Shown piece by piece: positions 12,001 to 35,876 of a stretch of DNA of 64,000 bases; the first letter of the stretch is position 1; each line of letters starts with the position of its first letter. This stretch comes from Eledone cirrhosa. Its lineage: Eukaryota. The stretch spans positions 59,520,001 to 59,584,000 of the forward strand of contig OZ024747.1 of NCBI GenBank assembly GCA_964016885.1, written 5' to 3'. Position numbers and translations under genes: made by a program. The notes beneath the pieces were generated by a model. That model was not told the DNA's origin. It made no database searches and worked only from the letters and a program-made list of their open reading frames with translations.

Positions 12001-13610
12001 CTAAATAAAACTGTTCATGGACCCAGGATAGATATGAAATGTACACACAACCTTCCAAATAAAACTGTTTATAGACCCAGGATATATATGAAATGTACAC
12101 ACACCCTTCCAAATAAAACTGTTCATAGACCCAGGATAAATATGAAATGTACACACACCCTTCCAAATAAAACTGCTCATAGACCCAGGATAGATATGAA
12201 ATGTACACACACCCTTCCAAATAAAACTGTTCATAGAGCCAGGATAGATATGAAATGTACGCACACCCTTCCAAATAAAACTGTTTATAGACCCAGGATA
12301 GATATCAAATGTACACACACCCTTCCAAATAAAACTGTTCATAGACCCAGGATAGATATGAAATGTACACACACCCTTCCAAATAAAACTGTTCATAGAC
12401 CCAGGATAGATATGAAATGTACACACCCCCTTCCAAATAAAACTGTTCATAGACCCAGGATAGATATGAAATGTACACACACCCTTCCAAATAAAACTGT
12501 TCATAGACCCAGGATAGATATGAAATGTACACACACTCTTCCAAATAAAACTGTTCATAGACCCAGGATAGATATGAAATGTACACACACCCTTCTAAAT
12601 AAAACTGTTCATAGACCCAGGATAGATATGAAATGTACACACAACCTTCCAAATAAAACTGTTTATAGACCCAGGATATATATGAAATGTACACACACCC
12701 TTCCAAATAAAACTGTTCATAGACCCAGGATAGATATGAAATGTACACACACCCTTCCAAATAAAACTGTTCATAGACCCAGGATAGATATGAAATGTAC
12801 ACACACCCTTCCAAATAAAACTGTTCATAGAGCCAGGATAGATATGAAATGTACGCACACCCTTCCAAATAAAACTGTTTATAGACCCAGGATAGATATC
12901 AAATGTACACACACCCTTCCAAATAAAACTGTTCATAGACCCAGGATAGATATGAAATGTACACACACCCTTCCAAATAAAACTGTTCATAGACCCAGGA
13001 TAGATATCAAATGTACACACACCCTTCCAAATAAAACTGTTTATAGACCCAGGATAGATATGAAATGTACACACACCCTTCCAAATAAAACTGTTCATAG
13101 ACCCAGGATAGATATGAAATGTACACACACTCTTCCAAATAAAACTGTTCATAGACCCAGGATAGATATGAAATGTACACACACCCTTCTAAATAAAACT
13201 GTTCATAGACCCAGGATAGATATGAAATGTACGCACACCCTTCCAAATAAAACTGTTTATAGACCCAGGATAGATATCAAATGTACACACACCCTTCCAA
13301 ATAAAACTGTTCATAGACCCAGGATAGATATGAAATGTACACACACCCTTCCAAATAAAACTGTTCATAGACCCAGGATAGATATGAAATGTACACACAC
13401 CCTTCCAAATAAAACTGTTTATAGACCCAGGATAGATATCAAATGTACACACACCCTTCCAAATAAAACTGTTTATAGACCCAGGATAGATATCAAATGT
13501 ACACACACCCTTCCAAATAAAACTGTTTATAGATCCAGGATAGATATGAAATGTACACACACCCTTCCAAATAAAACTGTTTATAGACCCAGGATAGATA
13601 TGAAATGTAT
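1..13610. repeat. 54-bp tandem satellite (~250 monomers), open at the left window edge
   Basis: Monomer GACCCAGGATAGATATGAAATGTACACACACCCTTCCAAATAAAACTGTTCATA repeated with point variants and occasional 25-bp deleted units; ends at ...GAAATGTATGTCCC. Confidence 0.99.
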
Positions 13611-16153: not shown

Positions 16154-16206
16154 GTATATGTATATATATAACCAAAGATTAATATGGATCATTGATTACT
16201 CAATTC

Positions 16207-16278
16207 ATATATTTTATCTGATGAGGACGTACTGAAAAAACAGCACAGTACCTCCGAAATATATATAATAAAACATAT
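16207..16278 (+). ncRNA. Type I hammerhead ribozyme, Penelope-like terminal fragment
   Basis: TTTTAT-CTGATGA(16218-24)-GGA c GTACTG..CAGTAC c TCC-GAAA(16256-59)-palindrome ATATATAT-A(16267)-ATAAAA; flanked by (TA)n. Confidence 0.8.
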
Positions 16279-16315
16279 TTTGATTATGTGAACGTCTTCA
16301 TTTATTAATATTTTG

Positions 16316-16385
<70 letters not shown>

Positions 16386-16586
16386 GCGCGTTTCGCTTTT
16401 TATACCCGCCGAAATGCGATTCTCGCTGAATGTATAGTATATATACATCAATCACTTTCTACATATACAGACACACCCTCTTCTATCTGTATATATTACA
16501 CACAATCATCACTTAATTTCTCACCCAATATACAGACACATATCTCTTTCTTATCCGTTTACATATAAACATCTCTATCTCCCGAA

Positions 16587-16640
<54 letters not shown>

Positions 16641-17054
16641 ACAAAAACTTTCTCTCTTCGTATATACAACATCTTTCTCTCTTCGTATATACAACATCTT
16701 TCTCTCCAGTCATTCTACAATGATGTGCACACAACCATCATTCGCTCTCTCCGCACATACTGCATCTCTCGCTCTAGGTATTTCCGTTATGCGTGTATAC
16801 ACACACACACACACCTGTCTATAATATGCGTGTATACACACACACACGGTCTCTATAATATGTGTATATATACATACAACTGTCTCTATAATATATACAT
16901 TCTTTTCTCTATTCATCCACTTAACTTTCAGTCACATGCTCTCCATTTTATTCCTCTATAATATTCCTCATATCTCTGCGATAAACATACATATGATACC
17001 CGCATATTTATCTAGCAGATAAAACGGGCATTAAATGGTTATACAAACACACAC

Positions 17055-17088
<34 letters not shown>

Positions 17089-17245
17089 CACCCCACCCTC
17101 AAGAGCCTGAAACTAATAAACCTTTGTTCGTACTGCCTCTGTTTTGTTCCCGTTCAATTTTTCACTATATATACATATACAGACCCTACATATAAAATAT
17201 ATAAACACACACACGTGAGCCCCAAACCTTTCACATACACGTTTA

Positions 17246-17290
<45 letters not shown>

Positions 17291-17307
17291 ATAAAAATAA
17301 AAGAGCC

Positions 17308-17385
17308 TGGCAGGTGAACAGTGAGCTGTACTGATGAAGGGTGAAACCCAGAAACATTAGTGTCTGCAGTTCTGTTTACATGCCA
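17308..17385 (+). ncRNA. Type I hammerhead ribozyme with long stem I and closed stem III
   Basis: CTGATGA 17331-37; stem II GGGT/ACCC; GAAA 17351-54; stem III ACA-TTAG-TGT; GUC site at C17364; stem I GAGCTGTA/TGCAGTTC extended by GTGAACA/TGTTTAC and TGGCA/TGCCA. Confidence 0.75.
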
Positions 17386-17669
17386 ACACAAGAGCAAGTT
17401 CTACTGACATGGCTATAAAATTGAGGGAGGCTTGTTTGTATAATTGCAAACGAATCGAATGTTATTATTATTATTCGAAAACCTCAGATTTCATTTAAAC
17501 ATACAAAGATCCGATCAAAATCCCAACACGCCATATGTCTGTACTAACATCATGTGCCACCATCATCTCCGCTCATCATACGGTGCTCTACTTCTAGAAA
17601 CCATTCTATAATCAGTGACAGCCAGTCATCATCAACCATTACTTTCGCTTTCGTTATACGCACACATGT

Positions 17670-17713
<44 letters not shown>

Positions 17714-18158
17714 TCATACTAACACTCCTTCATGACTATTCAAATCAATTAATTAATAATAATAATGGTTTCTGATTTAGGCACAAGGCCACCAATTTGG
17801 GGAGAGGGGGAAGGGGAGAGGGGGGAAGGGGAGTCGATTAATTCGACCACTCCAGTGTATTACTGGTGCTTTGTTTTATCTAATAATAAAAATTTAGTAA
17901 TTTACTACAGTTATTAATTATCTCATTACTTAAGATGGTAACTTAAACATATTGTTCTTATATAAAATGATGTTGGGATATTTTAATGCAAATACATGAA
18001 CTGTGTTAAAATGGTTTGTTTCGTATGGGTTGGTATGAAAACTGCGACTGTGTGAAAGAGATGGATGTTGAGTAATTCCTTCTTTAAAGAATTGTTCCTT
18101 AATAAACGCGACGTTGGTAAAATAATATTCAATTGAAAAATAACACCAAACACACACG

Positions 18159-18159
<1 letters not shown>

Positions 18160-18202
<43 letters not shown>

Positions 18203-19207
18203 ATATTTACACGCACACACACACATGTATATACAGTATATATATATATATATACACACAATAGCTATAACATTTATATATATATATATATATATACACA
18301 CAATATCTATAACATATACACATATATATATATATACACACATACACAATATCTATAACATATACACACACAATATCTATAACATATATATATATATATA
18401 CACCATTATAACATATATATATATATATATATACACACAACATAACATATATATATATATATACACATACACACAATATAACATATATATATATACACAC
18501 ACAACATAACATATATATATATATACACATACACACAATATAACATATATATATATATACACATACACACAATATAACATATATATATACATACACACAA
18601 ATAACATATATATATATATATATATACATACACACAATATAACATATATATATATATACATACATACACACACACAATATAACATATATATATATATACA
18701 TACATACACACACACAATATAACATATATATATATATACATACATACACACACACAATATAACATATATATATATATATATATACATGCACACAATATAA
18801 CATATATATACATACACACAATATAACATATATATATATATATACATACACAATATAACATATATATATATATATATATATACATACACACAATATAACA
18901 TATATATATATATATACATACACACAATATAACATATATATATATATATATATACATACACACAATATAACATATATATATATATATATACATACACACA
19001 ATATAACATATATATATATATATATACATACACACAATATAACATATATATATATATATATACATACACACAATATAACATATATATATATATATATATA
19101 CACACAATATAACATATATATATATATATATATACACACAATATAACATATATATATATATATATACACACAATATAACATATATATATATATATATATA
19201 CATACAC

Positions 19208-19279
<72 letters not shown>

Positions 19280-19332
19280 ACATATATATATATATATATA
19301 TATACACACAACATATATATATATATATACAC

Positions 19333-19372
<40 letters not shown>

Positions 19373-19416
19373 CACAATATCTATAACATATATATATATA
19401 TACATACCCACAATAT

Positions 19417-19452
<36 letters not shown>

Positions 19453-19751
19453 CACACAATATGTATAACATACATATATATATATACACACACACAATAT
19501 CTATAACATACATATATATATATATACACACACACAATATCTATAACATACATATCTATAACATACATATATATATATATATACACACACACAATATCTA
19601 TAACATACATATATATATATATATACACACAATATCTATAACATACATATATATATATATATATACACAATATCTATAACATACATATATATATATATAT
19701 ATATACACACAATATCTATAACATAGATATATATATACACACACACAAACA

Positions 19752-19790
<39 letters not shown>

Positions 19791-19800
19791 GTACACACAA
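18160..19800. repeat. Compound (TA)n/(CA)n minisatellite with a ~30-bp unit CACACAATATAACA(TA)nCATA
   Basis: Direct reading; the IYIY ORFs here are artefacts. Confidence 0.95.
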
Positions 19801-19831
19801 CACACATTCGCCTAGACACACATATACATAC

Positions 19832-20049
19832 TCGTATGAACAGAATTTTGTTGGTTCGATGCTTATTTTCTTTTCAAATTCTTCCATTTCCATATTTTCC
19901 AGATAAGACGGGGATATGGAACAAGAATTACTAGAGTATTCATTACTAAGTGGGTATATATTATATATATTGAACACTGATGATGATGTAATTGGTGTAT
20001 AATCGATTAATGCAGCATACATTGCCATTATATATTTTAACCGATACAT
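19832..20049 (-). CDS. Candidate coding exon of an unidentified minus-strand gene (MYRLKYIMAMYAALIDYTP...IEPTKFCSYE)
   Basis: Unique, stop-free 72 codons between microsatellites; acceptor TTGTTTTATAG ending at 20075; donor GA|GTATGT at 19831. No recognised homology. Confidence 0.3.
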
Positions 20050-20348
20050 TATTTTAGTTTAGAATAAATTAATACTATAAAACAATTACTAGTCGAGTTA
20101 GTAGTAGCATAATGGGTGTAATATTTGATTTTTACCATGTGTATATATATATATATATATATATGTGTGTTTGTGTGTGTGTGTGTGTGTGTAACAAAAA
20201 TTAAGATGAATTATGAAATAAAATGAAAAATGTCTTATCTTCGCATTGTTGGAATTTGTAAATTGTCTGTGTGTATATATGTATATATATATATATATAG
20301 TAATAATAATAAAATTGAAGACTAAAATCCAAAGAGGGCTCATATATA

Positions 20349-20415
<67 letters not shown>

Positions 20416-20424
20416 ATATATATA

Positions 20425-20474
<50 letters not shown>

Positions 20475-20559
20475 GGAATCTGTGTGTTGTTACTCAAAAA
20501 TTCTGAAACGAAACTCAGAGTCTTCGAATAAATTGTTACTCCATTCTTCCTCACATTAA

Positions 20560-20607
<48 letters not shown>

Positions 20608-21261
20608 TAGAGGGAGGTTGATATAGTGTGTATATATAAACAGATAGAGACAGGTATATATATATATATATATATAAAGAAAATTACTGCATTGGCTTAT
20701 ATCTTTTATGTTTTTCGTGCGGTGACTATGAAGAAGAAATATTTTCAAATCAAATCAAATCAAATCAAAATAATCAAAAAATATCACACACACACAAAAA
20801 AATAAAAAAAAAAAAAGAAACAGAGACGATAAAGGAGAAGAAAATATATAATAAATTAAAAATATAAATAAATGAAATATCAAATATTTTTTTAACAAAT
20901 ATGAAACTGATAGTAAAAGTACTTACAAATCTTGTAACCCCTCTATTGACGCAGTCAGAATTCGAAACCGTGAAGACCATAATAACGTTTCAAATATGTA
21001 ATAATGGAAATAACAAATATTTCTATATATTATATTGGGTATATTTGTATGTCAGGCAACAATCTTTGACAAGTGTTTAATTATATTGGGAGTTTTTCTT
21101 TTTTTCTGTCTGATATTAAGTTCAATTGAGGCAAATAATAATTATATATATGTATGTGTAAATATGTTTTATGTATGTTTATATAGGTGTGTGTATATAT
21201 ATATATGTATAATGTATGTATATATATATATGTGAGTATATGTATAATTTATGTATATATA

Positions 21262-21302
<41 letters not shown>

Positions 21303-21570
21303 GTATATATATATGTATGTATGGATAGATGGATGTGTGCTTATAAATAAATATGTTGTTTGCGAGTGTATATATATATATAGATAGATAGATAGTTAGA
21401 TAGATATCTATATCTATATATATATATATATGTGTGTGTCAGTGTGTGTATTTGTTGGTGTATTTAAAAAAAAATAGACAGCAAGATAAGTAAGTAAGTA
21501 AAGGAGGCGACGATAAAAATAATCTTCTCCCTTCACTCCGCTTTCTTCTTCTTATCCAAAGTGGAAACAC

Positions 21571-21600
21571 TGATGCATTGTGGGACAAAATATGGCGGAC
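21571..21600 (+). promoter_or_regulatory. ZNF143/Staf site followed by a YY1-like motif at the start codon
   Basis: TGATGCATTGTGGGA (reverse complement TCCCACAATGCATCA) at 21571-85; AATATGGCGG over the ATG; locally CpG-richer. Confidence 0.65.
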
Positions 21601-21613
21601 AGGCGTGATTCAG
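21592..21613 (+). CDS. Probable first coding exon (MADRRDS, phase 1) of an unidentified + strand gene
   Basis: AAAATATGGCG start context, then CAG|GTTTGT donor at 21614 and a T-rich intron-like sequence. Confidence 0.55.
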
Positions 21614-22011
21614 GTTTGTTTACATTTCATTCATATTTATGTCGTCTGCCAGTGTCTTTCTTCTTCACCGCCTCCATACACATAATTTCAAAGCTTTCGC
21701 GTGTATAAAACTAATAAGAAGAAAAATGTTTCTAACAAATATTTTTAGCTTACAAGTTTCTATCCTGAAATTATTAATTTTAAATTCGTATATTTTTTTT
21801 TTTTTTTTTTTTGTGGAAGAGAAAAGTGTAACGGAATATTTTTAATGCTCGTTCGTTTCTCTTGCTTTTTTATCGATTTCGTTTGAATGATTTTTATAAA
21901 ATTCATCTACCGCTATCATTTTCATTCGATTTGTAAGTGCCATTTGCCTTACATTTGACTTAGTTCTGAAGTTTGGTATATTTGTTTATACTTTCACTCG
22001 CTTAACAACGT

Positions 22012-22041
22012 CGCCGCCATTGTTGTCGTTGCTATGACAAC
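22012..22041. promoter_or_regulatory. RFX X-box with an adjacent minus-strand YY1 motif
   Basis: GTTGCTATGACAAC at 22028-41; CGCCGCCATTGTT at 22012-24. Confidence 0.6.
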
Positions 22042-22319
22042 CGAGCCTTCGTTTCAGTTGAACTTTTTTAAAATTTTATTTTAGTTTTGTTTTGTTGTTT
22101 TATTGCTCTTTTCTATCGATTAATAAGTATTCCATTACTATTTATTTTAAATTTTCGTATTGTTTAGGACAACTCTCCTAAGGACTTTTTTTTTTTTTGT
22201 TGTTTTTTTCAGCACTTTAATTAGTTTAATGATCACTTATGTAGAAGGGAGGAATGTAAGGAAATGTCAAACGAAATAATTTCTGCTTATATTTTTTTTT
22301 TCTCTTTGAAGAACATTTT

Positions 22320-23025
22320 GACTGCCGGCATTTAATAAAGCTTGTTTAGTTACGCCCCTTTACATTCTGAGTTCAAATCCTGACGACGTCAACTCTGCGT
22401 AATAACCTTCTTGGGTTGATAAAACAGAGGACTGTCCCACCCAACACTGGGATCAGTATAATCGATTATACATCTCTGCCCTTAACTTATGATCTTGCGT
22501 TTTAGAAATCGTTGTTTTCCTTTAAATTGCCGAAACACACGCTTGAGCGAGGGTTTCTTCTCTGAAAACCTTCCGCTGTCCAGCTCTCCTGAGAGTTTCT
22601 TACCATTTTAAAGTGATGTATATTTTGATACCTCTTTGGCGCTTCATCATTACGAGTTTGGATGCCATGCTTTGCAGCATAGAGTTACGCCCCTTTACGG
22701 TCTGAGTTCAAATCCCGCCGAGATTAACTTTGCCGATAAAATAAACTTGGTCGATAAAATAAAGCACCAGTAATGCTGGGATAATTGCTGGTCTTGTGCT
22801 AAAAGTAGAAATAATTATTACCTTTCGGTAATGAGCGTGATTGGCAGTATCGGTAGAGCGTTAGACACTGTGCTACGCAGCTTAGAGTTATGGCCCTTTA
22901 TGTTGTGAGTTCAAATCCCACCTAGGTTAACTTTGCCTTTCATCCTTACGGGGTTGATAAAATAAAGTACCAGTAATGCACTGGGGTTATTGCTGGCCTT
23001 GTGCCAAAAGTAGAAACAATTATTA
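22320..23025 (+). mobile_element. Three tandem copies of the main tRNA-derived SINE
   Basis: B-box GAGTTCAAATCC in each copy; body CTTTGCCTTTCATCC..GATAAAATAAAGTACCAGT; tail TGCTGGCCTTGTGCCAAAAGTAGAAACAATT. Confidence 0.9.
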
Positions 23026-23044
23026 CCATTCGGGTCGATTGTTT

Positions 23045-23325
23045 AAAGTAAGGGTTTAGGGTTAGCGTTTCATGTTAAAGTTTAGGTGTTAATTTTAGGT
23101 TTAGGGTTAGTGTTTAGGTTATGGTAATGTTTAAGGTTAGGGTTCAGGTTAGGTTTAGGGATTAATTTTAAGGTTAAGGTTATGATTACAGTTTAGAGTT
23201 AGCTTTTACAGTTGGAGTTTAGGTTATGGCGAGGGTTACGATTAGCGTTTAGGCTTTGGGTTTAGGTTTAGTTTAGTTTAAGGGGTTAGGGTTAGTTGTG
23301 TTTAGAGTTAGAGTTTAAGGTTTTA
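23045..23325 (+). repeat. Degenerate (TTAGGG)n-like tract
   Basis: Hexamer-periodic GGTTAG/GTTTAG/TTAGGG variants. Confidence 0.8.
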
Positions 23326-23854
23326 AAATATCCGTTTCAATGTGAAATGCAAGATAATAACAACGAAGAGCAACAAAGTTTGTTTTTTCCATACAAAAGA
23401 CAAATTTTCACTTCATTTTTCATTTAACCATACAAAATGTAAATGCAGTTAAGTGAAGGCTTGGCAGAAATAAATGCAATGGTATGACTTTCAATGCAGC
23501 AAGATGATTCCGGATTTACGTGTTAACTAAACAAGATACAGCCTATGACTACGGTTTTCAAACTGTGGGCCTCAGCATACTGGTATACCGAGAGTTACAA
23601 ATGGACGCTTTCACTGCGATCATGGAATAGCATACGTCTGAAGTTTTGCACATCGGAGATACTGGATGAACGAACGGAGAGGGACAATCTTTCACCAACT
23701 GGTTTATGCTGTTACCGTTTGGGCTAATGTTTTCTACTTTAGCTTCGGCATGACCAATGCCTCTTCTGTGTTGAATATGGCAACCACAAAAGCCCGTCGA
23801 GCGACAGTACAAAAGCTCTCGCATAATTAAAGTACTGAAGTCGATTATCTAGAC

Positions 23855-24206
23855 CAGAGGTTCTCAAACTTTTTAGGCCACCCAGCGCCCCCTACCCTAT
23901 TTCCAGGGAGACTTGCCTACTCGCAAATTGTAAATAATATATAATACATGAACTCGTTAATTTATATATAATAAATTAATTGTTTCTACTTTTGGCATAA
24001 CGCCAGCAAATACCCAGTACATTACTGGTACTTTATTTTATCGACCCCGTAAGGATATAATATATACTATGTATAAATAAATATTGTATTTTTTATTTTA
24101 CTATATTTATATATAATATGTATCATTTGATATTTAATATACTATTTTATCATCTCTAGCGCCCCCGGGGGCGGGGAGGTGGTAGCACTCACTTTGAGAA
24201 CCTCTG
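23855..24206. mobile_element. hAT MITE with an internal SINE fragment
   Basis: TIR CAGAGGTTCTCAAA / TTTGAGAACCTCTG; 8-bp TSD ATCTAGAC / ATATAGAC. Confidence 0.9.
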
Positions 24207-24327
24207 ATATAGACTATAGACCTGGGGTGTCATATTCAAGGACGCAAAGGGGCCATTACATCATGCCGGGGGGTTACAAAGATCCAAAAGTGAGATTAAT
24301 GGGGATGGGGGCGTAATTTCCACCATT

Positions 24328-24518
24328 TATAATTGTTTCTACTTTTGGCACAAGGCCAGCAATTAGTCCAGTGTCTTACTGATACTTTATTTTATCGACC
24401 CCGTAAGGATGAAAGGCAAAGCTAACATCGGCGAGATTTGAACTCAGAACACAAGGGCCATAACTCTGTGCTGCAAAGTATGGTGTCTGCTGCTCTACCG
24501 ATATTGCCAATCCACCAC
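24328..24518 (-). mobile_element. Main tRNA-derived SINE
   Basis: Reverse complement of the 25315-25506 copy. Confidence 0.9.
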
Positions 24519-24726
24519 TTAAAATAATTGATTCCAGTACTTTAATCATGCGGGAGCTTTTATACAGTTGCTTGACCTGCTAGAAATAGCAGCAAAAAAT
24601 TCTACTTCAAATAGCTCCTTGGTATCTTAAATAAGGAAGAATATTATCGGACAGTGTTGTCCCTGATATACTGAAAGACAAGATTGTTACGGTTAGAAAG
24701 GCCTACCCCCCCACCCACCCCGTCTT

Positions 24727-24777
<51 letters not shown>

Positions 24778-25314
24778 CTTTCTTTCTCTTCCTCTCCATT
24801 TTCTCTTCCTCCGCATTCTCTCTTTCTCTCTCTCTCTCTCATTCACTCCCCACTCTCTCTTCCTCGTATGCCTTTCTCTTCCTTCTCCCACTTCTCTTTC
24901 TCCCTCTCTGTCCCTACTCCTCTCCCCTCTCTCCCCCACTCTCTATCCACCCCACCCCCCCCCCCTCTCTCTCTCTCTTTCACCCCCCCCCCCCTCCGTC
25001 ATTCCACACTCTCCCAATAATATGTCTGTTGTGTCTATATGAAATACCAAGTCTGTAACACTAACACTGTTAATTTCCCAAGCAGCAGTAATTCCGTTGG
25101 TCAGATAACTGAGTGCCAAGGAACTGCAGGAAGAGAATGACAAATGCCTGTATAGCATGGATCAATTATTTAAAAGGCATATTGACCTAATTCTACTCTC
25201 ATGAATCAAGTAATGACTAAAACTGCTGAAGATCTTGGAAAAGGTTAGATATCTGTTGGAAAATGTAATGGAACATTGAAGAATAGGTGTGGTTATCAGT
25301 TATTATTAAAAAAA

Positions 25315-25506
25315 GGGCGGTGGATTGGCAGTATCGGTAGAGGGTCGGACGCCATGCTTTCCAGCATAGTTACGTCCCTTTACGATCTGAGTTCAAATCC
25401 CGCCGAGGTTGACTTTGCCTTTCATCCTTACGGGGTCGATAAAATAAAGTACCAGTAATGCACTGGTTAATTGCTGGCCTCGTGCCTAAAGTAAAAACAA
25501 TTATTA
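25315..25506 (+). mobile_element. Main tRNA-derived SINE, full length
   Basis: A-box-like TGGCAGTATCGG, B-box GAGTTCAAATCC, ATT-rich tail. Confidence 0.92.
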
Positions 25507-25659
25507 AAAAGGGGGAAAGATTAGCAGGGGTACAGATTAGAAGAGAGAACTTTTATAGGGGACAGACTTTCTCCTATCTTATTTCTAATAGGACTGCCAC
25601 TCCCACTTCCCATTTTTTTTTTTTTTTTTGATTATTCAAAATAAAGCCAAGAAGGTTTA

Positions 25660-25830
25660 TTTACTGAGATAGAACAGAGGAAACATGGACTGTCTCACCC
25701 TTTTCATGGATGATTTAGAACTTTATGGTAAAGACATGAATAAACTGGATTCTTTTATGTAAATTGTACAAATATTTAAAAGTGATATTGGGATGATATT
25801 CAGTATCTAATAATGGGCTTTAATGGAAAT
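25660..25830 (+). mobile_element. Decayed reverse-transcriptase fragment (R4/NeSL-like LINE)
   Basis: LSH-frameshift-LFMDDLELYGKD catalytic motif. Confidence 0.6.
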
Positions 25831-26181
25831 GAAACCAGGCCTGTCACCAAATATTGAGAACAATACTTTAACATCAGTATGAGTGGCCGGTTACGACCTG
25901 TTTGAACAGAAAGAGGTGAGTGAATTCTGGCCAGATATGGCCGGTTTAAATGCTTAGGGGTTAATCTAGGGCTGCCAAATACTCCCCATTGTTGGTCAAG
26001 AAAGTTAATGTCTTCTAGAAATTGTCCTGTTTACTAAACTGTCACTTTATCTTTCATCATCAAGTACCAATAAGATCTACAAGGTGACAGAACCAATCAT
26101 TTATGTCTGGACAGTTCTCAAGCTTCTTTGTTTGTGAATGACAAACAATAGAGATTCTTACATATATATATTGTAGATCTA

Positions 26182-26247
<66 letters not shown>

Positions 26248-26300
26248 CACATATATATGTATATATATATGTGTGTGTATATATATATATATATTTGTGC

Positions 26301-26332
<32 letters not shown>

Positions 26333-26593
26333 ATGTAGCTCAAGAAATGACAAGACGAAAACGGATACAAAAACAGAAAGTCATATTTTATATCACACTT
26401 AGAGGGAAAAGAAGAGAGTTGAGGTTTTAGACATAAGTCCTTCCTCAGGAAATTGAGAGTTCAGAGAGAGAAAAGGTTTGAACATCGGAGTTTGAGAAAA
26501 AACTTGTTTTAATAAGTTAGTAGGTGAGTAGTCTGGCATTGAGGAAGGTGAAGAATTCAGGTGTGTCATTGGTGTTATATATATATATATATA

Positions 26594-27019
26594 CAATGAT
26601 ATTAAATAAATGGAAACTATATTTATAAAACCATATTTATTCTATTATATATATTTCAAGGGTACCAAAAACTTTGGTACGCTTTCATCAGATAAAATAC
26701 AAAGTACGTTTTATAAATTTTGACATAGCCAAGGAACATACCTTAACGGTTAAAGTTTTCCTTAACTTCAACCGTTAAGGTATATTCCTTGGCTATGTCA
26801 AAATTTATAAAACGCACTTTGTATTTTATCTGATGAAAGCGTACCAAAGTTTTTGGTACCCTTGAAATATATATAATAGAATAAATATGGTTTTATAAAT
26901 ATAGTTTCCATTTATTTAATATCATTGAATATTATACTCCAGAAAACTTGTCGAGTGCTCTGAATCAGTTATAAACATTTATATTTGTTGAATTACCAAC
27001 AAATTGAATATCCCTTCTG

Positions 27020-27020
<1 letters not shown>
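26594..27020. mobile_element. Penelope-like terminal repeat plus inverted partial copy (164-bp foldback) carrying two hammerheads
   Basis: Arms 26594-26757 and 26764-26927 with 3 mismatches by eye; + strand HHR 26822-26883 with canonical CTGATGA/GAAA/TA core; (TA)n on both sides. Confidence 0.8.
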
Positions 27021-27068
<48 letters not shown>

Positions 27069-27072
<4 letters not shown>

Positions 27073-28005
27073 GACAGCTTCCGTTACCTGGGTGACAAAA
27101 TCACCAGTGGGGGAGGGTGGTCTGAAAGTACAGTAGCTAGAGTCAGAACAGGATGGAAAAAGTTCAGAGAGCTTATACACTATTGGCCGCTAAAGGGTTC
27201 TCTCTAAAAATGAAAGGCAGGCTGTATGATGCCTGCATACGAACAGCAATGTTACATGGCAGTGAGACCTGGGCATTGTGTGCAGAGGATATACGCAGAC
27301 TGGAGAGAAACGAAGCTCGCATGCTCCGCTGGATGTGTAATAGTAATATACGTGAACGGCAAAGCATAAACGAACTAAGGGAGAAATTAGGAATAAGAGG
27401 GATCAGATGTTGTTTACTCGAGAGAAGACTACGTTGGTATGGTCACATGATGCGCATGAAAGACGACAGCTGTATAAAAAAAGAGCAGGGCGATAAAAAT
27501 AGACGGTAGCCACGGAGTAGGCAGACCCAGAAAAACCTGGGACGACTTGATAAATTCCGACCTCACACACTTACACCTCTCCAAGACAATGTCACCGGAC
27601 CGAGATCTTTGGCACTACACAGTTATACAGAAGACCTGCCTTGCCTAAGTACAAAGCGAAACCTACAGTCAGTAGGCACCTCTAACGAAATACAACCCCC
27701 CCCCTTATTGTGAAGTTATGTTGGTACCACAACATCCAGTCCGAAACAAATGCGGTCGTTTAGGTGTCACAACAAAAAAAAAACACACACAGTCCACGCT
27801 GTAATGTGGTCGTGTAGGTAACACGGTAAAAACCCCCCAGACCCACACTGTAAACGTGGTTGGAGTTAGGAAGGGCATCCAGCCGTAGAAAACCCGCCAG
27901 ACAGTCCTATACGAGCAGGATAACCAATCTTGCCTCAAGTGGGAAAACTCCCGTCCAAACCCATGCAAGCGTGGAAGATGGACGTTAAACGATGATGATG
28001 ATGAT
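27069..28005 (+). mobile_element. 5'-truncated RTE-clade LINE (ORF C-terminus, 3' UTR, (GAT)n tail)
   Basis: VDSFRYLGD...ARVRTGWKKFREL / frameshift / KGRLYDACIRTAMLHGSETW...RRLRWYGHMMRM; tail GGACGTTAAAC(GAT)n. Confidence 0.92.
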
Positions 28006-28083
28006 ATATATATATATAGTTAAATATTAGACAGGAACAAAAAACAGAGAGGCATGTATATCTTAACTCTTTAACTATATATA

Positions 28084-28253
28084 TAATTGTTTCTACTTTT
28101 GGCACAAGGCCAGTAATTATCCCAGTGCATTACTGGTACTTTATTTTATCGACCCCGTAAGGATGAAAGGCAAAGTTAACCTTGGCGGGATTTGAACTCA
28201 GATCGGAAAGGCCCGTAACTCCATGCTGCAAACCATGGCGTCCGACCCTCTAA
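28084..28253 (-). mobile_element. Main tRNA-derived SINE, 5'-truncated
   Basis: Matches the reverse complement of the SINE consensus. Confidence 0.9.
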
Positions 28254-28270
28254 CTATATATATAATATTA

Positions 28271-28305
<35 letters not shown>

Positions 28306-28308
<3 letters not shown>

Positions 28309-28508
28309 AAAGGTAAACAGAAATAACAACACAATTGGTACAGTATATGGAAGGAATATATTATGTTAATGCTTGAAATAGCAGAAAGATAATCTTAACG
28401 TTTCAGACGCTAGCCCTTCATCAGAAGAAAGAATGAGAAATTAGAAAGATTGAAGGGATGGGCGGGGTGGAATTTGAAAAAATGTTTTAAGGAAAGATAA
28501 CAGGTCCA
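28306..28508 (-). mobile_element. Penelope-like terminal fragment with a minimal hammerhead (28393-28428)
   Basis: Minus strand TCTT-CTGATGA-AGGGCTAGCGTCT-GAAA-CGT-T-AAGA; homologous to 42743-42948. Confidence 0.7.
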
Positions 28509-28886
28509 CCCACTTTTCCAAATTAGCATAAGTTTTTTTAGAGTTCCATACCTTTGCTGATGCCCCACATTTTAGTTTACTCTTACAACTCACAGAGATA
28601 CAGTGTATCTATACATAAAGCAAACATACAAACAGACAGTAATATATATGAGTGAGTGTGGAAGGGTTGGCCTGAGCATGATTTGAACTCACAAGTGCAA
28701 ATTACCTGAACAAATATCATGAGATCTTCACCCCCTTGTTCTAATGACTTTACTCACTGGTTTTCTCCTAACTTATCCAGTGATTTAAACACATAAAAAG
28801 ATGTGTACACTTTAAAATAAATTAAAAATATCAATAAAAATCTTTCATGTTTTAATAAAAATATATAACCTCTCTTTCTCTCTCTC

Positions 28887-28942
<56 letters not shown>

Positions 28943-28945
<3 letters not shown>

Positions 28946-29040
28946 GGTGTCCCCCAAAAAATCTATACACAGCTCAACAGCATTCTAATAAATATTGCCT
29001 GTACAGGTAAAATGAGAATACATTTTTTGGGGACACTCTG
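28943..29040. mobile_element. Tc1/mariner MITE (98 bp)
   Basis: TIR CAGGGTGTCCCCCAAAAAAT / ATTTTTTGGGGACACTCTG; TA flanks. Confidence 0.85.
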
Positions 29041-29063
29041 TATATATATACACACACACACAG

Positions 29064-29100
<37 letters not shown>

Positions 29101-29147
29101 ATGTTAGCTTGATTCTTCCTTTAGGTGAGTAAATTTATTATTTGTCG

Positions 29148-29197
<50 letters not shown>

Positions 29198-29277
29198 ACA
29201 TAATACTAGAGGTTTCTCAACTAGATACATGGAAAACAAAACTTTTTGTATATCATTTAAATTTGTACACATATATA

Positions 29278-29322
<45 letters not shown>

Positions 29323-29455
29323 GTTATTCCGGGTTGAATCGGAGGTAACCACAGTAAGTAAGGTACTCAATACATAGCAGAGTATAAAAGTTTTAATATA
29401 AGATTCCTGATGATTTCTAATGAATGAAACAGTTCTAGTCCTGTAGAATCTCATC

Positions 29456-29486
<31 letters not shown>

Positions 29487-29487
29487 G

Positions 29488-29566
<79 letters not shown>

Positions 29567-29601
29567 ATGTATATATGTGTGTGTATATATATATGTGTGT
29601 G

Positions 29602-29675
<74 letters not shown>

Positions 29676-30094
29676 GTTGTTTTTGGCAGTGAAATTGTAT
29701 TAGCACTTCTGTTGATACTTTGAGAACATTGTTTTAATCTTTCCTTACCATTAGGCAGAGATGTTCTACTGGTAGTATTTAGCTTTCCTAGTGTGTTTAT
29801 TATGCAGGTTTAATGAGATTTTAGTCTGAACATTAGTAGAAAAGAATTATTATGATAAAGCTGTGTCATTATGGCATGGAGGAAAATTAAATAAAGAAGC
29901 AACAGAATTCAAATTCAAAGAGTAGATAACATTTGAAAAAATGTATTTCAAGAAAATTATAAACTGGAAGTCATCGAAAATAACAGGTTACGGTATATGA
30001 CTGTTAGGTGAAGAAGTGCCAAGAGACTTAAAGTAGAAACAAGTTGCATTAGAGAATAGAAGAGCAAACATAAAATTGATTATTATTATTATCA

Positions 30095-30670
30095 TTTTTA
30101 TTTTCTTTCATTATTGTTTCTGAGATATATGCCGAGTGTCTTCCTGACACCTAGGGCAAATAAATTCACAGTGTGCATTGGTAAGCCAGTTATTACAGCA
30201 CATTGATTATAATTTTAAAAAAAACAAAAAAAAAAACAGTATTCATATATACACATGTGCATATGCATATGTAAATACAAGGAGGGATATCAATCTTACA
30301 GAGATAGTGCTCTTCTCAATACGTGTGCAGTACCAGTCAAAACAATTTTTTTGCACCTTATGCAGAGAGGGTAAACCAGGAATCATTCGCAAATATTGTT
30401 CTGTTCCTTTCTTGATCATTCCCAGTCCCCCCACAATCACTGGTATTGTAACGGCCTTGAGGTGCCACATTTTCTCAATTTCAATGAGCAGATCTTTATA
30501 TTTTCGTAGCTTGTCAAATTCTTTTGCCGCGATATTGTGATCACATGGGATGCTCATATCTATCAATAAACAGACCTTGTTATGTTGATCTTTTACAATG
30601 ATGTCAGATCTATTTGCTTTTATGGTCCTGTCAGTATGTACAGGAAAGTCCCAGAGAATTGTTACTTTTT

Positions 30671-30675
<5 letters not shown>
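30095..30675 (-). mobile_element. 3' end of an R4/NeSL-like LINE, restriction-like endonuclease domain
   Basis: ILWDFPVHTDRTIKANRSDIIV...LLIDMSIPCD...KEFDKLRKYKDL...IPVIVGGLG; (AAT)n tail. Confidence 0.88.
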
Positions 30676-30712
<37 letters not shown>

Positions 30713-30713
30713 A

Positions 30714-30905
30714 GGGCGGTGGATTGGCAGTATCGGTAGAGGGTCAGACACCATGCTTTCCAGCCTAGTTACGTCCCTTTACGATCTGAGTTCAAATCCC
30801 GCCGAGGTTGACTTTGCCTTTCATCCTTACGGGGTCGATAAAATAAAGTACCAGTAATACACTGGGTAATTGCTGGCCTTGTGCCAAAAGTAGAAACAAT
30901 TATTA
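30714..30905 (+). mobile_element. Main tRNA-derived SINE, full length
   Basis: Near-identical to 25315-25506. Confidence 0.92.
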
Positions 30906-30907
30906 TC

Positions 30908-31370
30908 TCTCTGGTGGCCATGGCAAAAAAGATCGTTTGAAAGGGCTGAAGATGAGCACTTACCCCCTCGGTAATGCCCTGATTAACTTTTTCAAATTTC
31001 ATTTGAAAAGGAAAATCATGGTGGAGAGGGAAATGCTCTCTTCCCAGCATTTTGTTGAAAGATGGGTGAGAGAGGCAAACATGGCCCGAGTGAATGAGCC
31101 TGCTCCTAGTATGCATCTGTAAATTGAAGGTGGAAAACTGGGAGAGGGCATTTGCCCTGGTGGTCAGCATCACCATGGCTTTTTTAATGGGCTTTCTCCA
31201 TGAGTGTCCCTCAGAAGTCTCTCCCTCCTATTGGGGAATTTCCTTTTGATTCTTTTATGTCATTTTCTGTTTTTTTTTCTTTACATGCAGAAATACCCAT
31301 TTGTACCGTCCTGTGCTGTCCTTAATGTTATACTTTATGTCAACCCTTGTGGTTAATAAAGAAAACATTA
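30908..31370 (+). mobile_element. 3' end of a Tx1/L1-clade LINE
   Basis: LINFFKFHLKRKIMVERE..FVERWV..ARVN is homologous to the ORF at 56190-56801; ends CCCTTGTGGTTAATAAAG. Confidence 0.75.
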
Positions 31371-31382
31371 TCATTATTATTA

Positions 31383-31618
31383 GGGCGGTGGATTGGCAGT
31401 ATTGGTAGAGAGTCGGACACTATGCTTTGCAGCATAGAGTTACGGTCCTTTACGGTCTGAGTTCAAATCCCGCCGAGGTTAACTTTGCCTTTCATCCTTA
31501 CGGGGGGGGGGGGGGGGGGGGGGGGTCCATAAAATAAAGTACGAGTAACATACTGGGGTCAATTTAATCAACTTTCTCCTCCCCAACAAAATTGCTGGCC
31601 TTGTGCCTATATAAGAAA

Positions 31619-31625
<7 letters not shown>
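31383..31625 (+). mobile_element. Main tRNA-derived SINE, longer variant with an internal poly-G
   Basis: Same head, body and tail as the other copies. Confidence 0.9.
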
Positions 31626-31652
<27 letters not shown>

Positions 31653-31659
31653 CAATATT

Positions 31660-32190
31660 GTTATTCTTGGAATCTCAGTCATTGATGCTATTTAACTGGA
31701 AAGCAGCCTCAGATATTCAGGACGACGTATCGAAGGGTTCTTGCTGCTCCCAGCAAGCATGCCTTTTGATGTGTTTCAAAAAAAGGAGGCTGGACTAATG
31801 TTCTTTAACCATCCTTGAAAACTCTTTGAGATAATACCTAGTGCCCTTATAACAATCGGGATGACCTTGATCTCATGACAGTCCCAAATCCTTTTTAATT
31901 CCCACTTTAAATCCTGGTTTCAGTTAATTTTCTCCTTCTGCTTTTCTTGCACTGTTATGTCAAAGAGGCAGGCTACATCTACAATCAGGCACGATCTTGT
32001 TTTCCTTGTCCAAAACCACCAGGTCAGGCCTATTGTGTTATAATTTCTTGTCTGTCTGTATCCTGAAATCCCATAGCACCTTCACCTGATCGTTTTCTAT
32101 CACCGACTCTGGCTTATGCTCATACCACTTCTCAGAATGTGGTAAATTGTTTAGTTTGCATAGGTGCCAGTGTATCAGTGTATGGATGAT
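31660..32190 (-). mobile_element. Decayed 3' end of a second R4/NeSL-like LINE
   Basis: HWHLCK..KWYEHKPESVIENDQVKVLWDFRIQTDKKL*HNRPDLVV...IPIVIRALG. Confidence 0.85.
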
Positions 32191-32349
32191 GACTGTTAGG
32201 TGAAGAAGTGCCAAGAGATTTAATGTAGAAAGAAGTTGCATTAGAAAATGGAAGAACGAACATAATATTGTGGTGATTATTATTATTATTATTATTATTA
32301 TGGGCGGTGGATTGGCAGTATCAATAGAGAGTCGGACATCATGCTTTGT

Positions 32350-32645
32350 GGGGGACCCATGGCATTTCAGGTTTGAGGCGGACCCATGGCACTTCAGCTT
32401 TTGGGGGTACCCATGGCACTTCAGGTTTGGAAGGCACCTCATAGACAAAATACTAGAATACACAACAAACCCCTCCAATTTCACATATCAAAGTTAGCTT
32501 GGTGCAAGTAATTGGAATTGAATAGTTATACATACAGGTATTATGAGGGAACAAATAAATTACTACGGCCATCACTGGTGGGGTCCACCACTGTAGGGGG
32601 CCTGGGGAAATTGCCCCTTTTGCCCCCCATTAAATCTGGCCCTGC
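32350..32645 (+). mobile_element. MITE copy (family of 63619-63930)
   Basis: Shared internal sequence and right end ATTAAATCTGGCCCTG. Confidence 0.7.
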
Positions 32646-32785
32646 TTATACCTAGTTTCTCATTCGGATCATCCGTGAGTAATGTAAGGATTAAGTGTGA
32701 CAAAATGACATATACGTATAAAATTGCATGTGTGCTCAAGTATACATACACACACACACACACATACACACATATACACATGCAT

Positions 32786-32819
<34 letters not shown>

Positions 32820-33525
32820 ACACACACGTACGCATGCATACATGCATGTACACACACGTACACACATGGTCATGCACACAAACACACATGCATTTCACAG
32901 TCCCTCTTTACCAATAAATACAGTTACCTCCCAAAACACATTCTCCCACCATCAATTGTACATACCCCACCTTCACCACATTACCTTCCCTATTTATCCA
33001 CACGTGCACACAGACACACACACAGACACGCACGCAGACACACACACAGACACACACACACACTTCACCAATAAATACAGTCACCCCCACACGCACATCC
33101 CTCAATTGTGCATACCCCATCTTCCCTACATTCACCTCCCCCCTCCCCCATCAGTTGTACATGTCTCCGCCTACACACACCCCACATTCATCTCTCTGTC
33201 CTCCTCCCTCTCCACCAGTTGTATATACCCCCCTCCCCCCGCCACACACACACCACATTCACCTCTCTACGTGACCGTGAATTATAAATTCCTGATTTGC
33301 TGTCGGCTCATTTAAGAAGAAGACTTCACCATTTACCAACCATTTTTGCCTGTCAATACAACACTGACTTGAACTTCTTAGTGAAAACTTGAATAACAAT
33401 TTATTGATTTAAATATTTCATACTCAATTGTATAAATTTAGAAACTGGAAGAGAGAAAAAAGAAAAAGAAGGAAGAAAATAAATAAACAAAAGAGTAAGG
33501 GATGGGGTGTAAGCGGGGAAGAGGC

Positions 33526-34105
33526 AAACTCTATGCCATCGGTTGGATGGTTTATCTCAGCTGTGTAATTGCTGCAGGAAACAGCCAGTGATACCCACTA
33601 CATCAACCATACCACCTCTCAGGATAAACTCTAGGCTGTTGACTGGTTGGTATATCTCAGCTGTGTAATTGCTGCAAAGAACAGCCAGTGATTCCCACTA
33701 CATCAGCCATACCACCTCACAGGTCAAACTCTATGCCATCGGTCGGATGGTTTATCTCAGCTGTGTCATTGCTGCAGATAATAGCCAGTGATACCCACTA
33801 CATCAGCCATACCACTCTACAGGATAAACTCTAGGCTGTTGGTTGGATGGTATATCTTGGCTGTGTCTATTGTATAAGATGGTGAAATCATTACTGTAGA
33901 GAACAGCCAGCGATACCCACTACATCAACCATACCATCTCACAGGACAAACTCTACATACTTGTCTGGATGATGCATCTCAGCTGTGTCCCAAGTATAAG
34001 ACAGTGAAATCATTACTGCAGAGAACAGCCAGTGATACCCACTGCATCAGCCATACCACCTCACAGGACAAACTCTATGCTGTTGATTGGATGGTATAAC
34101 TCAAT
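33526..34105. repeat. Tandem array of 100/100/100/122/122-bp units plus a partial unit
   Basis: AAACTCTA anchors at 33526, 33626, 33726, 33826, 33948 and 34070. Confidence 0.92.
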
Positions 34106-34629
34106 CAGAAATACCAACTGCATCAACCATTCAACCCCATGGGCCTTCTTCTTCAAGCAATATACCCTCCCAATTTGGCAGAAGAAAGTGGCAATCTGGG
34201 GTGTGAGATCTCAATGATAAATGGCACAAAATCAAAACATTCAGGCAAAGGCCTGAATATAATCATTTTTAATTTCATCCTCTTCAATATTTTCCTGTGA
34301 ATATGACTGACTTTTTTTTTACAAAAAAAAAAAAAAATTGATATAAAATCTACTTGTGAAAGTCTCAATCCCGGAATTTCAGTAGGCCAGTACTTATCCC
34401 AGTTTCCTTGGCATTAAACATCTGATAGTGTAAGGATGCCAGTCCATCGCAGACTTAAACCACCCAGATAGTGTTTGTACTCATTTTCAGCTGAGTATAT
34501 TGGAGCAATGTAAAATAAAGTGTTTTCTTCAAGAACACAACACACAACCTGGCTCAGGAATCGAACCAACAACATTATCATCACTTATATCTATGACATC
34601 ATTATGCAATAGGTTTTGTACTCTTTTAA

Positions 34630-34823
34630 CCCTCTAGCATTTAAACTGGCTGTATCTGGCCAGAATTCTCTTACCTCTTTCTGTTGAAACCAGCTGTAAC
34701 TGGCCAACAATACTGACGTAATACTATCATCTTCAAAATCTCATAGATTCAATATTATGTGAGATAAAGCCTTTACCATGAAAAATACAATAATAAATAT
34801 AGAGTAATGTAAATGCTAAAGGG
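34630..34823. mobile_element. piggyBac-like (TTAA) MITE; related copies ~25850-25960, 44430-44675, 50150-50355, 61337-61518
   Basis: TTAA|CCCTCTAGCATTTA ... TAAATGCTAAAGGG|TTAA. Confidence 0.85.
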
Positions 34824-35454
34824 TTAAGGCAGTAGGATGTCATTTCAGGATTATTTGGCTACTATTTCTAGCTGATCAAGTGACCACATAGAAGCTCTTT
34901 TATTTGCATGGAGACGTATATAGTGCAATGATTTGAGGCATTCCAATATTCTATGCTCAACAACCTATTAATTAATCCAGAAAATCATTAGATAATTGGT
35001 GGTTACTGATTAGTATCCAATTGTTAAGGCTGATTAAATGTCTACTCTGTTATTTCAGAAAATACTGAAGCTACCAACTGTACATATTTTAATCAATGAT
35101 TATTTAAATAAAAACAAATAAAACAGAAAACAAAAACAAAAACCAAATGCTTACTTTTTTTGCAATCCTTCATCTTATGTCTATACTGGAAATCATTTGT
35201 TTTGGCTTTCATAGTCACTCAAAAGGTCATGTTCTATTAAAAAAGTGAAAATACTTCTGTTTAACAGTAAATTCATCTTCTTATCTTATTTCATTTTTTA
35301 AAATCAAAATATAGATTATATATATCATAATCATCATCGTTTAATGTCCATTTGCCGTGCTAGCATGGGTTAGTTTGATGCAAGTCGGGTCAGGTGACCG
35401 TGTCTTGCTCATACAGAACTGTTTCTGGCTTCATATATATATATATATATATAT

Positions 35455-35876
35455 GTAGGAGGTTAGTTTTATTGTAGTACAATAAAGCAATGCAGATATC
35501 GGATAAGAAGCACTCTACAGTTTGTAGGACTGGAGTATACATAATATATAAGATCAAAAGATGGTTAAAGGAGTTCCATGTATTTTATTATGCGCATTTC
35601 AAAAACAAACATCATCATGCAATAATATTTGTGTTTTCATCCGATAAAAAAGGAGGACATGATATGAAGGCTAAAACACTTGTGGATAGTGCAGTTTTAA
35701 ATCAACATATCTTGATATGTTGATTTAAAACTGCACTATCCACAAGTGTTTTTTAGCCTTCATATCATGTCCTCCTTTTTTATCGGATGAAAACACAAAT
35801 ATTATTGCATGATGATGTTTGTTTTTGAAATGCGCATAATAAAATACATGGAACTCCTTTAACCATCTTTTGATCT

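Follow-up and report, generated by a model that had tools for sequence, protein, structure and literature searches.

Hammerhead motifs with a conserved C-pyrimidine mismatch in stem II in Hydra-type Penelope-like elements of Eledone cirrhosa

Introduction

Penelope-like elements (PLEs) of the Hydra clade (Craig et al. 2021, PMC8557442) are described as elements with inverted arms and tails that encode a C-terminal endonuclease with the motifs RW, DKT, CxCX5C, CxxC and CxH, insert into (TA)n and carry near the 3' end a type I hammerhead with a loose first stem II pair and a near-palindromic stem III. We analysed 64,000 nucleotides of the genome of Eledone cirrhosa (assembly GCA_964016885.1, contig OZ024747.1, positions 59,520,001 to 59,584,000 of the forward strand; hereafter the window), which contain three hammerhead motifs, HHR1 to HHR3, of three element families, F1 to F3, that resemble the Hydra clade in the endonuclease frame, the targets and these hammerhead features. 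The published Hydra hammerheads (File S2 of the same paper) have an uninterrupted stem II and a stem III of mostly 9-10 nt, whereas those of F1-F3 combine an 8-nt stem III with a long stem II containing a fixed C.Y loop, and the 3' untranslated region (UTR) of the elements spans ~1 kb.

Other described systems share part of these features. The PLE hammerheads reported by Cervera and de la Pena (2014, PMC4209133), e.g. in Drosophila virilis Penelope, are alike in their location within pseudo-long terminal repeats (pseudo-LTRs), in the long helix II, in the palindromic helix III, which is read there as a dimer device, and in occurring as opposite-strand pairs 100-700 bp apart. They differ in having a conserved G10.1-C11.1 pair, not kept in F1-F3, and minimal forms with a stem III shorter than that of F1-F3; in D. 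virilis Penelope the irregularity in the middle of helix II is a single bulged base instead of a 1x1 C.Y loop. Poseidon of Anolis carolinensis (PAc; Frangieh et al. 2024, PMC11167929), belonging to another clade, shares with F1-F3 the A+T-rich targets and two reverse-transcription start sites bounding a tail, which measures 30-40 nt compared to ~85-95 nt in F1-F3. As we propose for F1-F3, its uncut RNA is the main template, and none of its reads end at the cut site; a 5' hot spot with an extra G, as we find for F1-F3, is not reported in the accessible text of this paper. The axolotl retrozyme hammerhead HHR_Amex2 (Cervera and de la Pena 2020, PMC7229834) is alike in its 2-bp helix III with tetraloop and its weak helix II base and performs better as a dimer, but it is part of a non-coding tandem retrozyme and makes loop 1-loop 2 contacts, while the F1-F3 motifs are ends of coding elements. 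Furthermore, a promoter and an intron in the Penelope pseudo-LTR (PMC2377424), Inr-like words and palindromic junctions (PMC3846280) as well as a palindromic stem III and a U-U at the base of stem II in hammerheads (PMC3088659) have been described. Earlier work thus covers the palindromic stem III, the long stem II and the inverted arms, the mismatch being new as far as the searched literature shows: we found no paper on a position-4 mismatch or a cap-like G in these elements, with subscription papers, figures and Repbase lying outside the search.

Results

The three motifs of the window share one fold and are located as follows:

16210..16275, plus strand: HHR1, type I hammerhead of family F1, predicted cut after A16267
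26822..26883, plus strand: HHR2, hammerhead of family F2, predicted cut after A26875
35776..35846, plus strand: HHR3, hammerhead of family F3, U4 changed to G at 35785, site after A35838

The core positions C3 and H17 are at 16218 and 16267 in HHR1, at 26830 and 26875 in HHR2 and at 35784 and 35838 in HHR3. Stem II starts with three positions reading GGA/TCC, AAG/CTT and AAA/TTT, respectively, followed by the mismatch (C16228.C16252, C26840.C26860 and C35794.T35823) and a distal helix of 6, 8 and 12 bp. Stem III is formed by ATATATAT in HHR1 (16259-16266) and HHR2 (26867-26874) and by ATGCGCAT in HHR3 (35830-35837). The original prediction had placed three hammerheads of one shared fold at these sites, and we recovered all of its stems, mismatches and palindromes; it overlooked the core change of HHR3 and two minus-strand mirrors, a loose scan of both strands yielding five motifs in the window with HHR2 and HHR3 each accompanied by a mirror. 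The type I core CUGANGA...GAAA...UH with three helices, open at stem I, is present in HHR1, HHR2 and mirrors, the intact core not being kept in HHR3, which reads CGGATGA with U4 changed to G in both arms. A U4 to G change of the core is presumably harmful. It represents a change at the level of individual copies: 0/24 F3 motifs found via the protein carry it, and 24/24 of these show the type I hammerhead core. An apparent enrichment of the change among F3 matches was dismissed as a search bias toward rare words, and the literature searched held no published account of its effect on hammerheads. Searching the window with Rfam gave 0 matches at the gathering score and, at E up to 10, no hammerhead among the 150 of 170 matches listed. 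A later-built model recovers the five motifs at E <1e-12, the window copies having belonged to its training set, together with one weak extra match in the window.

We found each motif being the 3' pseudo-LTR of a separate high-copy family and each family being linked to a reverse transcriptase-endonuclease frame, in agreement with the Penelope-like origin that had been proposed. A first look gave 942, 2,662 and 45 candidate copies for the three motifs; 40 of each were scored, and the best copies are 93-100% identical and end in (TA)n, the insertion target of all three families. Two F3 loci (L091, L093) carry an 800-aa frame between two hammerhead-bearing repeats, the distance from hammerhead to hammerhead on the same strand, i.e. 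the whole unit, being 3,689 nt. The F3 protein contains RLRWT (with T for the K of the RWK type), SDKT, FDI, YRDD, CNCRIKNKC, CNLC and CLH, motifs that appear to fit the Hydra clade as described in PMC8557442, where the likeness to the published alignment was judged by eye; a Pfam search did not recognise the protein. A 300-aa piece of it is found at 97-100% identity in 131/131 scored places, many having 821-codon open frames. The F2 hammerheads lie ~1.1 kb past the end of a related endonuclease (L125, L126, L127, L131, L141; 20 loci), and those of F1 are likewise downstream of a related frame, directly in L145 and L159 and within inverted arms in L148 and L160 (20 loci). The family proteins are ~45-70% identical to each other. 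In a quick tree of 99 rows, midpoint-rooted, projected on the F3 query and containing only unnamed Hydra-type relatives, the 25 rows from the E. cirrhosa genome cluster together, separate from the 74 metagenome rows, with F1, F2, F3 and one further lineage grouping at support 99. Unlike non-LTR retrozymes, F1-F3 showed no tandem non-coding hammerhead arrays among the family copies examined. One sequencing run filed under a different organism label contains F3, with no change listed at C10.4. Near-identical matches, full frames and head-to-head or tandem pairs of F3 are a sign of a recent burst.

As protection against search bias, we drew a blind sample of 10-kb stretches starting at round coordinates, 140 in all (1,399,800 bases), and scanned it with a descriptor making no demand on position 10.4/11.4 or on the stem III sequence while demanding stem I pairing and stem II folding. 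It returned 119 intact-core type I hammerheads compared to 1 in reversed DNA, and the motifs are therefore not due to chance. An 8-nt stem III is present in 45/119, and 40 motifs from ~32 sites are of the type with stem III A...AT. At position 10.4/11.4 these 40 show C.C in 28, C.U in 6, U.C in 1, A.C in 1 and G-C in 4 cases, one G-C case being a register slip and the other three deriving from two insertions (L190, L225). The mismatch, which had been predicted as fixed from three copies, is thus a pyrimidine-pyrimidine pair at stem II position 4 in 35/40 motifs of the blind sample. Model R1, which favours C at the mismatch position, gave 49 matches in 100 of the 140 blind stretches, 45 of them with a pyrimidine pair and including families absent from training. 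A rough extrapolation for the mismatch type amounts to 0.9-1.4 x 10^5 motifs in the genome. As observations apart from this type, the sample holds ~1 intact-core hammerhead per 12 kb (L165-L304), roughly extrapolated 2.5 x 10^5 in the genome and of many types; several have a long stem II with large internal loops (e.g. L217, L219, L195, L220), and L284:278-9566 is a tandem array with ~420 nt spacing and a 6-nt stem III hammerhead per unit, resembling a retrozyme.

Stems I and II covary, the mismatch is fixed and stem III is self-complementary across clusters. The 206 motifs with a stem III of this A...AT kind from all loci were reduced to 24 clusters, of which three were dropped (stem III not AT...AT) and 21 representatives aligned; pair counts with shuffle and slide controls gave a covariation score of 0.707 compared to 0.318 in shuffles (0/500) and <=0.197 for slid partners, scores which are not to be taken as probabilities since the clusters are related and stem pairing was demanded by the descriptor. 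This bears out the proposal of a structurally conserved, covarying subtype. Position 10.4/11.4 is unpaired in 20/21 clusters, while neighbouring positions take 2-5 pair types, e.g. UA 7, AU 6 and GC 6 at 10.3/11.3 and CG 11 and UA 10 at 10.6/11.6. The compensatory changes claimed for the three opening pairs of stem II hold for the pairs flanking the mismatch; the first pair, 10.1-11.1, is loose, being paired in 15/21 clusters and no better than in shuffles. Nor is G10.1-C11.1 kept behind an extra base, G-C occurring in 3/21 at the first and 7/21 at the second position. In sequence, the C at 10.4 and the R-Y-A following it are conserved, and position 1.6 is A in 18/21 clusters and unpaired in 6.

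Only one radiation of elements in the E. cirrhosa genome carries the mismatch. In 78 Hydra-type metagenome loci, obtained by an alignment-based search after matching nothing with a single protein, we found 57 hammerheads, 48 of them distinct (in 48 loci), with 45 paired at the mismatch position, 41/48 having a stem III of 9-10 nt and R1 scores <=30.8 bits; 0/48 have a pyrimidine-pyrimidine at position 4. The Hydra rows of File S2 (PMC8557442) in its accessible part, including Hydra-1_Obim of Octopus bimaculoides, likewise show no position-4 mismatch. A cephalopod-wide subtype, as put forward in the original prediction, would have to accommodate this lack of the mismatch in the one octopus Hydra hammerhead that is published. 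The known Penelope-type hammerhead is thus present here as a real structural variant that is specific to a lineage and borne by young Hydra-type elements.

Regarding stem III, the monomer forms 2 bp closing four bases with a predicted +4.7 kcal/mol and a pair probability <=0.001, and two copies form 8 bp with predicted self-duplex energies of -3.2 and -10.5 kcal/mol. The inner stem III positions are able to pair in 20/21 clusters (AU 16/GC 4 and UA 10/UG 7/CG 3). Because they stay self-complementary though the monomer hairpin cannot use them, dimers are favoured, which is consistent with the dimer action previously attributed to the palindromes, and on these predictions the motifs likely cut only as pairs.

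The surroundings of the motifs in the window are organised as follows:

16172..16205, minus strand: part of the F1 tail (outer 3' end) in inverted orientation, joined head to head to the F1 fragment
16200..16320, plus strand: fragment of the F1 pseudo-LTR with a 5' truncation 18 nt ahead of the core; its inner 3' end lies in (TA)n
26589..27021, both strands: F2 head-to-head insertion in (TA)n; the minus left arm stops at the inner 3' end, the plus right arm has the tail to the outer 3' end
26638..26699, minus strand: mirror copy of HHR2 in an inverted repeat with arms of 169 nt
26935..26959, plus strand: conserved tail motif (ACTC/GAGT stem) just beyond the inner 3' end, common to F1-F3 and many Hydra-type relatives
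35456..35876, both strands: F3 head-to-head insertion in (TA)n, tail on the minus arm
35581..35651, minus strand: mirror copy of HHR3, likewise with U4 changed to G, in an inverted repeat with arms of 136 nt
35711..35714, no strand: F3 palindrome centre; both arms begin at the family 5' hot spot behind G where the template has C, a possible cap copy

These are PLE-type insertion features, i.e. 5' truncation, an adjoining inverted copy and an optional 3' tail, and the window copies are truncated by-products, dead-end fragments. The read-through RNA of the palindromic units is predicted to be a single hairpin (-259 and -280 kcal/mol) hiding the ribozyme, so that two of the window motifs would sit buried in a perfect hairpin if transcribed through. 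As the mirror copies are on opposite strands and this RNA folds into one hairpin, they cannot act as dimer partners.

Each family has two 3' ends, at ~+100 to +106 and at +188 to +199 from C3, the outer figure lying near the reference ends used. The 5' ends pile up upstream of the core at -68 (10/57), -79 (12/104) and -69/-70 (27/111), many copies in these counts coming from queries covering the hammerhead, and each pile-up falls on the A of a pyrimidine-C-A word. Most copies hold the intact motif and extend upstream of it. Among 40 copies found via the tail, comprising the first 20 new places of each list, 0 start at the cut site and 1 within 2 nt, and the upstream pile-up reappears; a hint of 5' ends at the cut site in blind F2-like matches was lost in this set and may be explained by TA matching. 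Reverse transcriptases copy caps as an extra G. The base preceding the hot-spot junction is G in 19/40 compared to 24/126 elsewhere (C left out, p 0.0007), per locus in 15/32. From the pile-up and the extra G we infer that the inserts are likely copies of capped, uncut transcript 5' ends. The tail motif RCTC...GAGYRC occurs downstream of 39/84 core-like sites in the Hydra-type metagenome loci (L345-L422) and upstream of 1, so that it is a candidate for a clade-wide element at which protein binds or reverse transcription starts; an interpretation of the tail AG as conserved splice acceptor was rejected, the AG not being kept in several lineages. Separately, a splice-donor-like G/GTATGT is located 30-50 nt upstream of C3 in F1, F2 and related lineages (26780-26785 of the window for HHR2), with no AG between it and the core, and is not evident in F3. 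If used, it would make the hammerhead part of an intron of the 5' UTR, a parallel to the intron of D. virilis Penelope.

Discussion

Our data make it probable that the motifs are pseudo-LTR hammerheads of three related Hydra-clade PLE families, present in the window as truncated, mostly fold-back (TA)n insertions, with a ribozyme that is likely a weak, dimer-dependent cutter and a C-pyrimidine loop that may be a docking point for stem I. We propose that transcription would start at the 5' pile-up point and that cutting would require pairing of two stem III palindromes, either of the 5' and 3' pseudo-LTRs of one transcript or of two RNAs, perhaps with assistance of the element protein. Reverse transcription by the protein would begin at one or the other side of the tail, which follows closely behind the hammerhead, and would extend to the capped 5' end, and the resulting 170-270 nt copies would often pair up head to head. 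Since the copies appear to run from the tail to the capped 5' end, their templates would be uncut. Selection on the mismatch is likely because its neighbours turned over while the position itself moved only among pyrimidine pairs. The mismatch is presumably situated where stems I and II approach each other in natural hammerheads, and the A at 1.6 gives a weak hint in the same direction; taken by itself, stem I docking as the role of the mismatch has a little less than an even chance, a damping hinge being an unlikely alternative role. For the tertiary or dimer contact considered in the original prediction, the hints are indirect ones.

Several points weigh against this interpretation. Cleavage and RNA behaviour of the motifs are predicted from sequence only, stem I and the mismatch do not covary, the A at 1.6 may reflect A+T richness, and the insertions L190 and L225 of the blind sample close the mismatch to G-C. 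The clusters being related and the descriptor demanding stem I pairing and stem II folding, the shuffles overstate covariation. The F3 unit of 3.7 kb exceeds the <3 kb given for Hydra elements. The extra G drops to 11/28 loci (p 0.01) after removal of mirror arms and of G explained by the neighbouring arm and is weak in F1 (2/11), and cut RNAs might simply degrade, so that missing cut-site junctions do not prove rare cutting. Finally, invertebrate retrozyme hammerheads with a 2-bp stem III and tetraloop can cut well as monomers (PMC7229834).

The mismatch could instead be a binding mark for an element or host protein aiding folding or template choice with no RNA-RNA contact, an explanation we regard as possible though doubtful. 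Cleavage by the anole PLE hammerhead requires the element protein (PMC11167929), restriction of the mismatch to one radiation is expected of a co-evolving protein site, and conservation of C at 10.4 and the following R-Y-A is one of sequence; yet a fixed distance from the core suits an RNA contact equally, and the separate clade-wide tail motif (39/84 downstream, 1 upstream) is a better protein-binding candidate. That some invertebrate retrozymes cut as monomers with 2 bp and a tetraloop in stem III (PMC7229834) also suggests an efficient monomer, in which the mismatch would provide a tertiary contact offsetting the weak stem III and cut RNAs would simply not be copied. We consider this quite unlikely, as the inner stem III self-complementarity is kept across clusters, the predicted monomer stem III is very unstable and most copies include the intact motif and extend upstream.

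A mismatch that arose once in an ancestor and was inherited without own function would agree with the linked families forming one clade, with other Hydra-type hammerheads working without it (0/48) and with the G-C closure in two insertions. The repeated turnover of the flanking pairs around a position moving only among pyrimidine pairs, and proteins that are only ~45-70% identical, render it very unlikely. Palindromic units are very numerous, with 22/49 R1 matches having an opposite-strand partner within 600 nt, which would be compatible with the short units being a self-propagating non-autonomous family, similar to retrozymes or to MITEs (miniature inverted-repeat transposable elements). Palindrome centres and arm lengths, however, vary between copies, tandem arrays of units are absent and the read-through hairpin (-259 and -280 kcal/mol) would conceal the ribozyme, making such a family extremely improbable. 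In a further-reaching reading, a Hydra-type radiation of ~10^5 motifs in one genome evolved a new architecture in which the C-pyrimidine loop of stem II replaces the usual loop-loop contact and works as a switch, the ribozyme being kept inactive until assembly of two copies or of the element protein. The genomic record of this would be tens of thousands of short 'strong-stop' copies that begin in the tail and reach the capped start of transcripts left uncut; this reading is rather unlikely in its entirety.

With F3 being young and having many open frames, this family allows protein, RNA and the conserved structural peculiarity to be studied in combination. A docking function of the mismatch, if true, would mean that hammerheads have a further, new means of joining stems I and II. 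Should the 5' pile-up correspond to the capped start, the promoter could be mapped from genomic copies, which would also show uncut RNA as template in an animal germ line.

Other observations in the window and at related loci

The window contains a satellite at 59-13609, made up of ~251 copies of a 54-nt unit and having long open frames in its minus strand, and fragments resembling non-LTR retrotransposon frames at 27071-27400, 30246-30671 (minus strand) and 56190-56798. Two distant inverted repeat pairs, 22848-23023/28083-28258 (86%) and 30704-30836/39346-39478 (90%), are probably dispersed repeats. Many loci (L014, L005, L051 and others) are adjoined by members of a recurrent family of short palindromic repeats in (TA)n.

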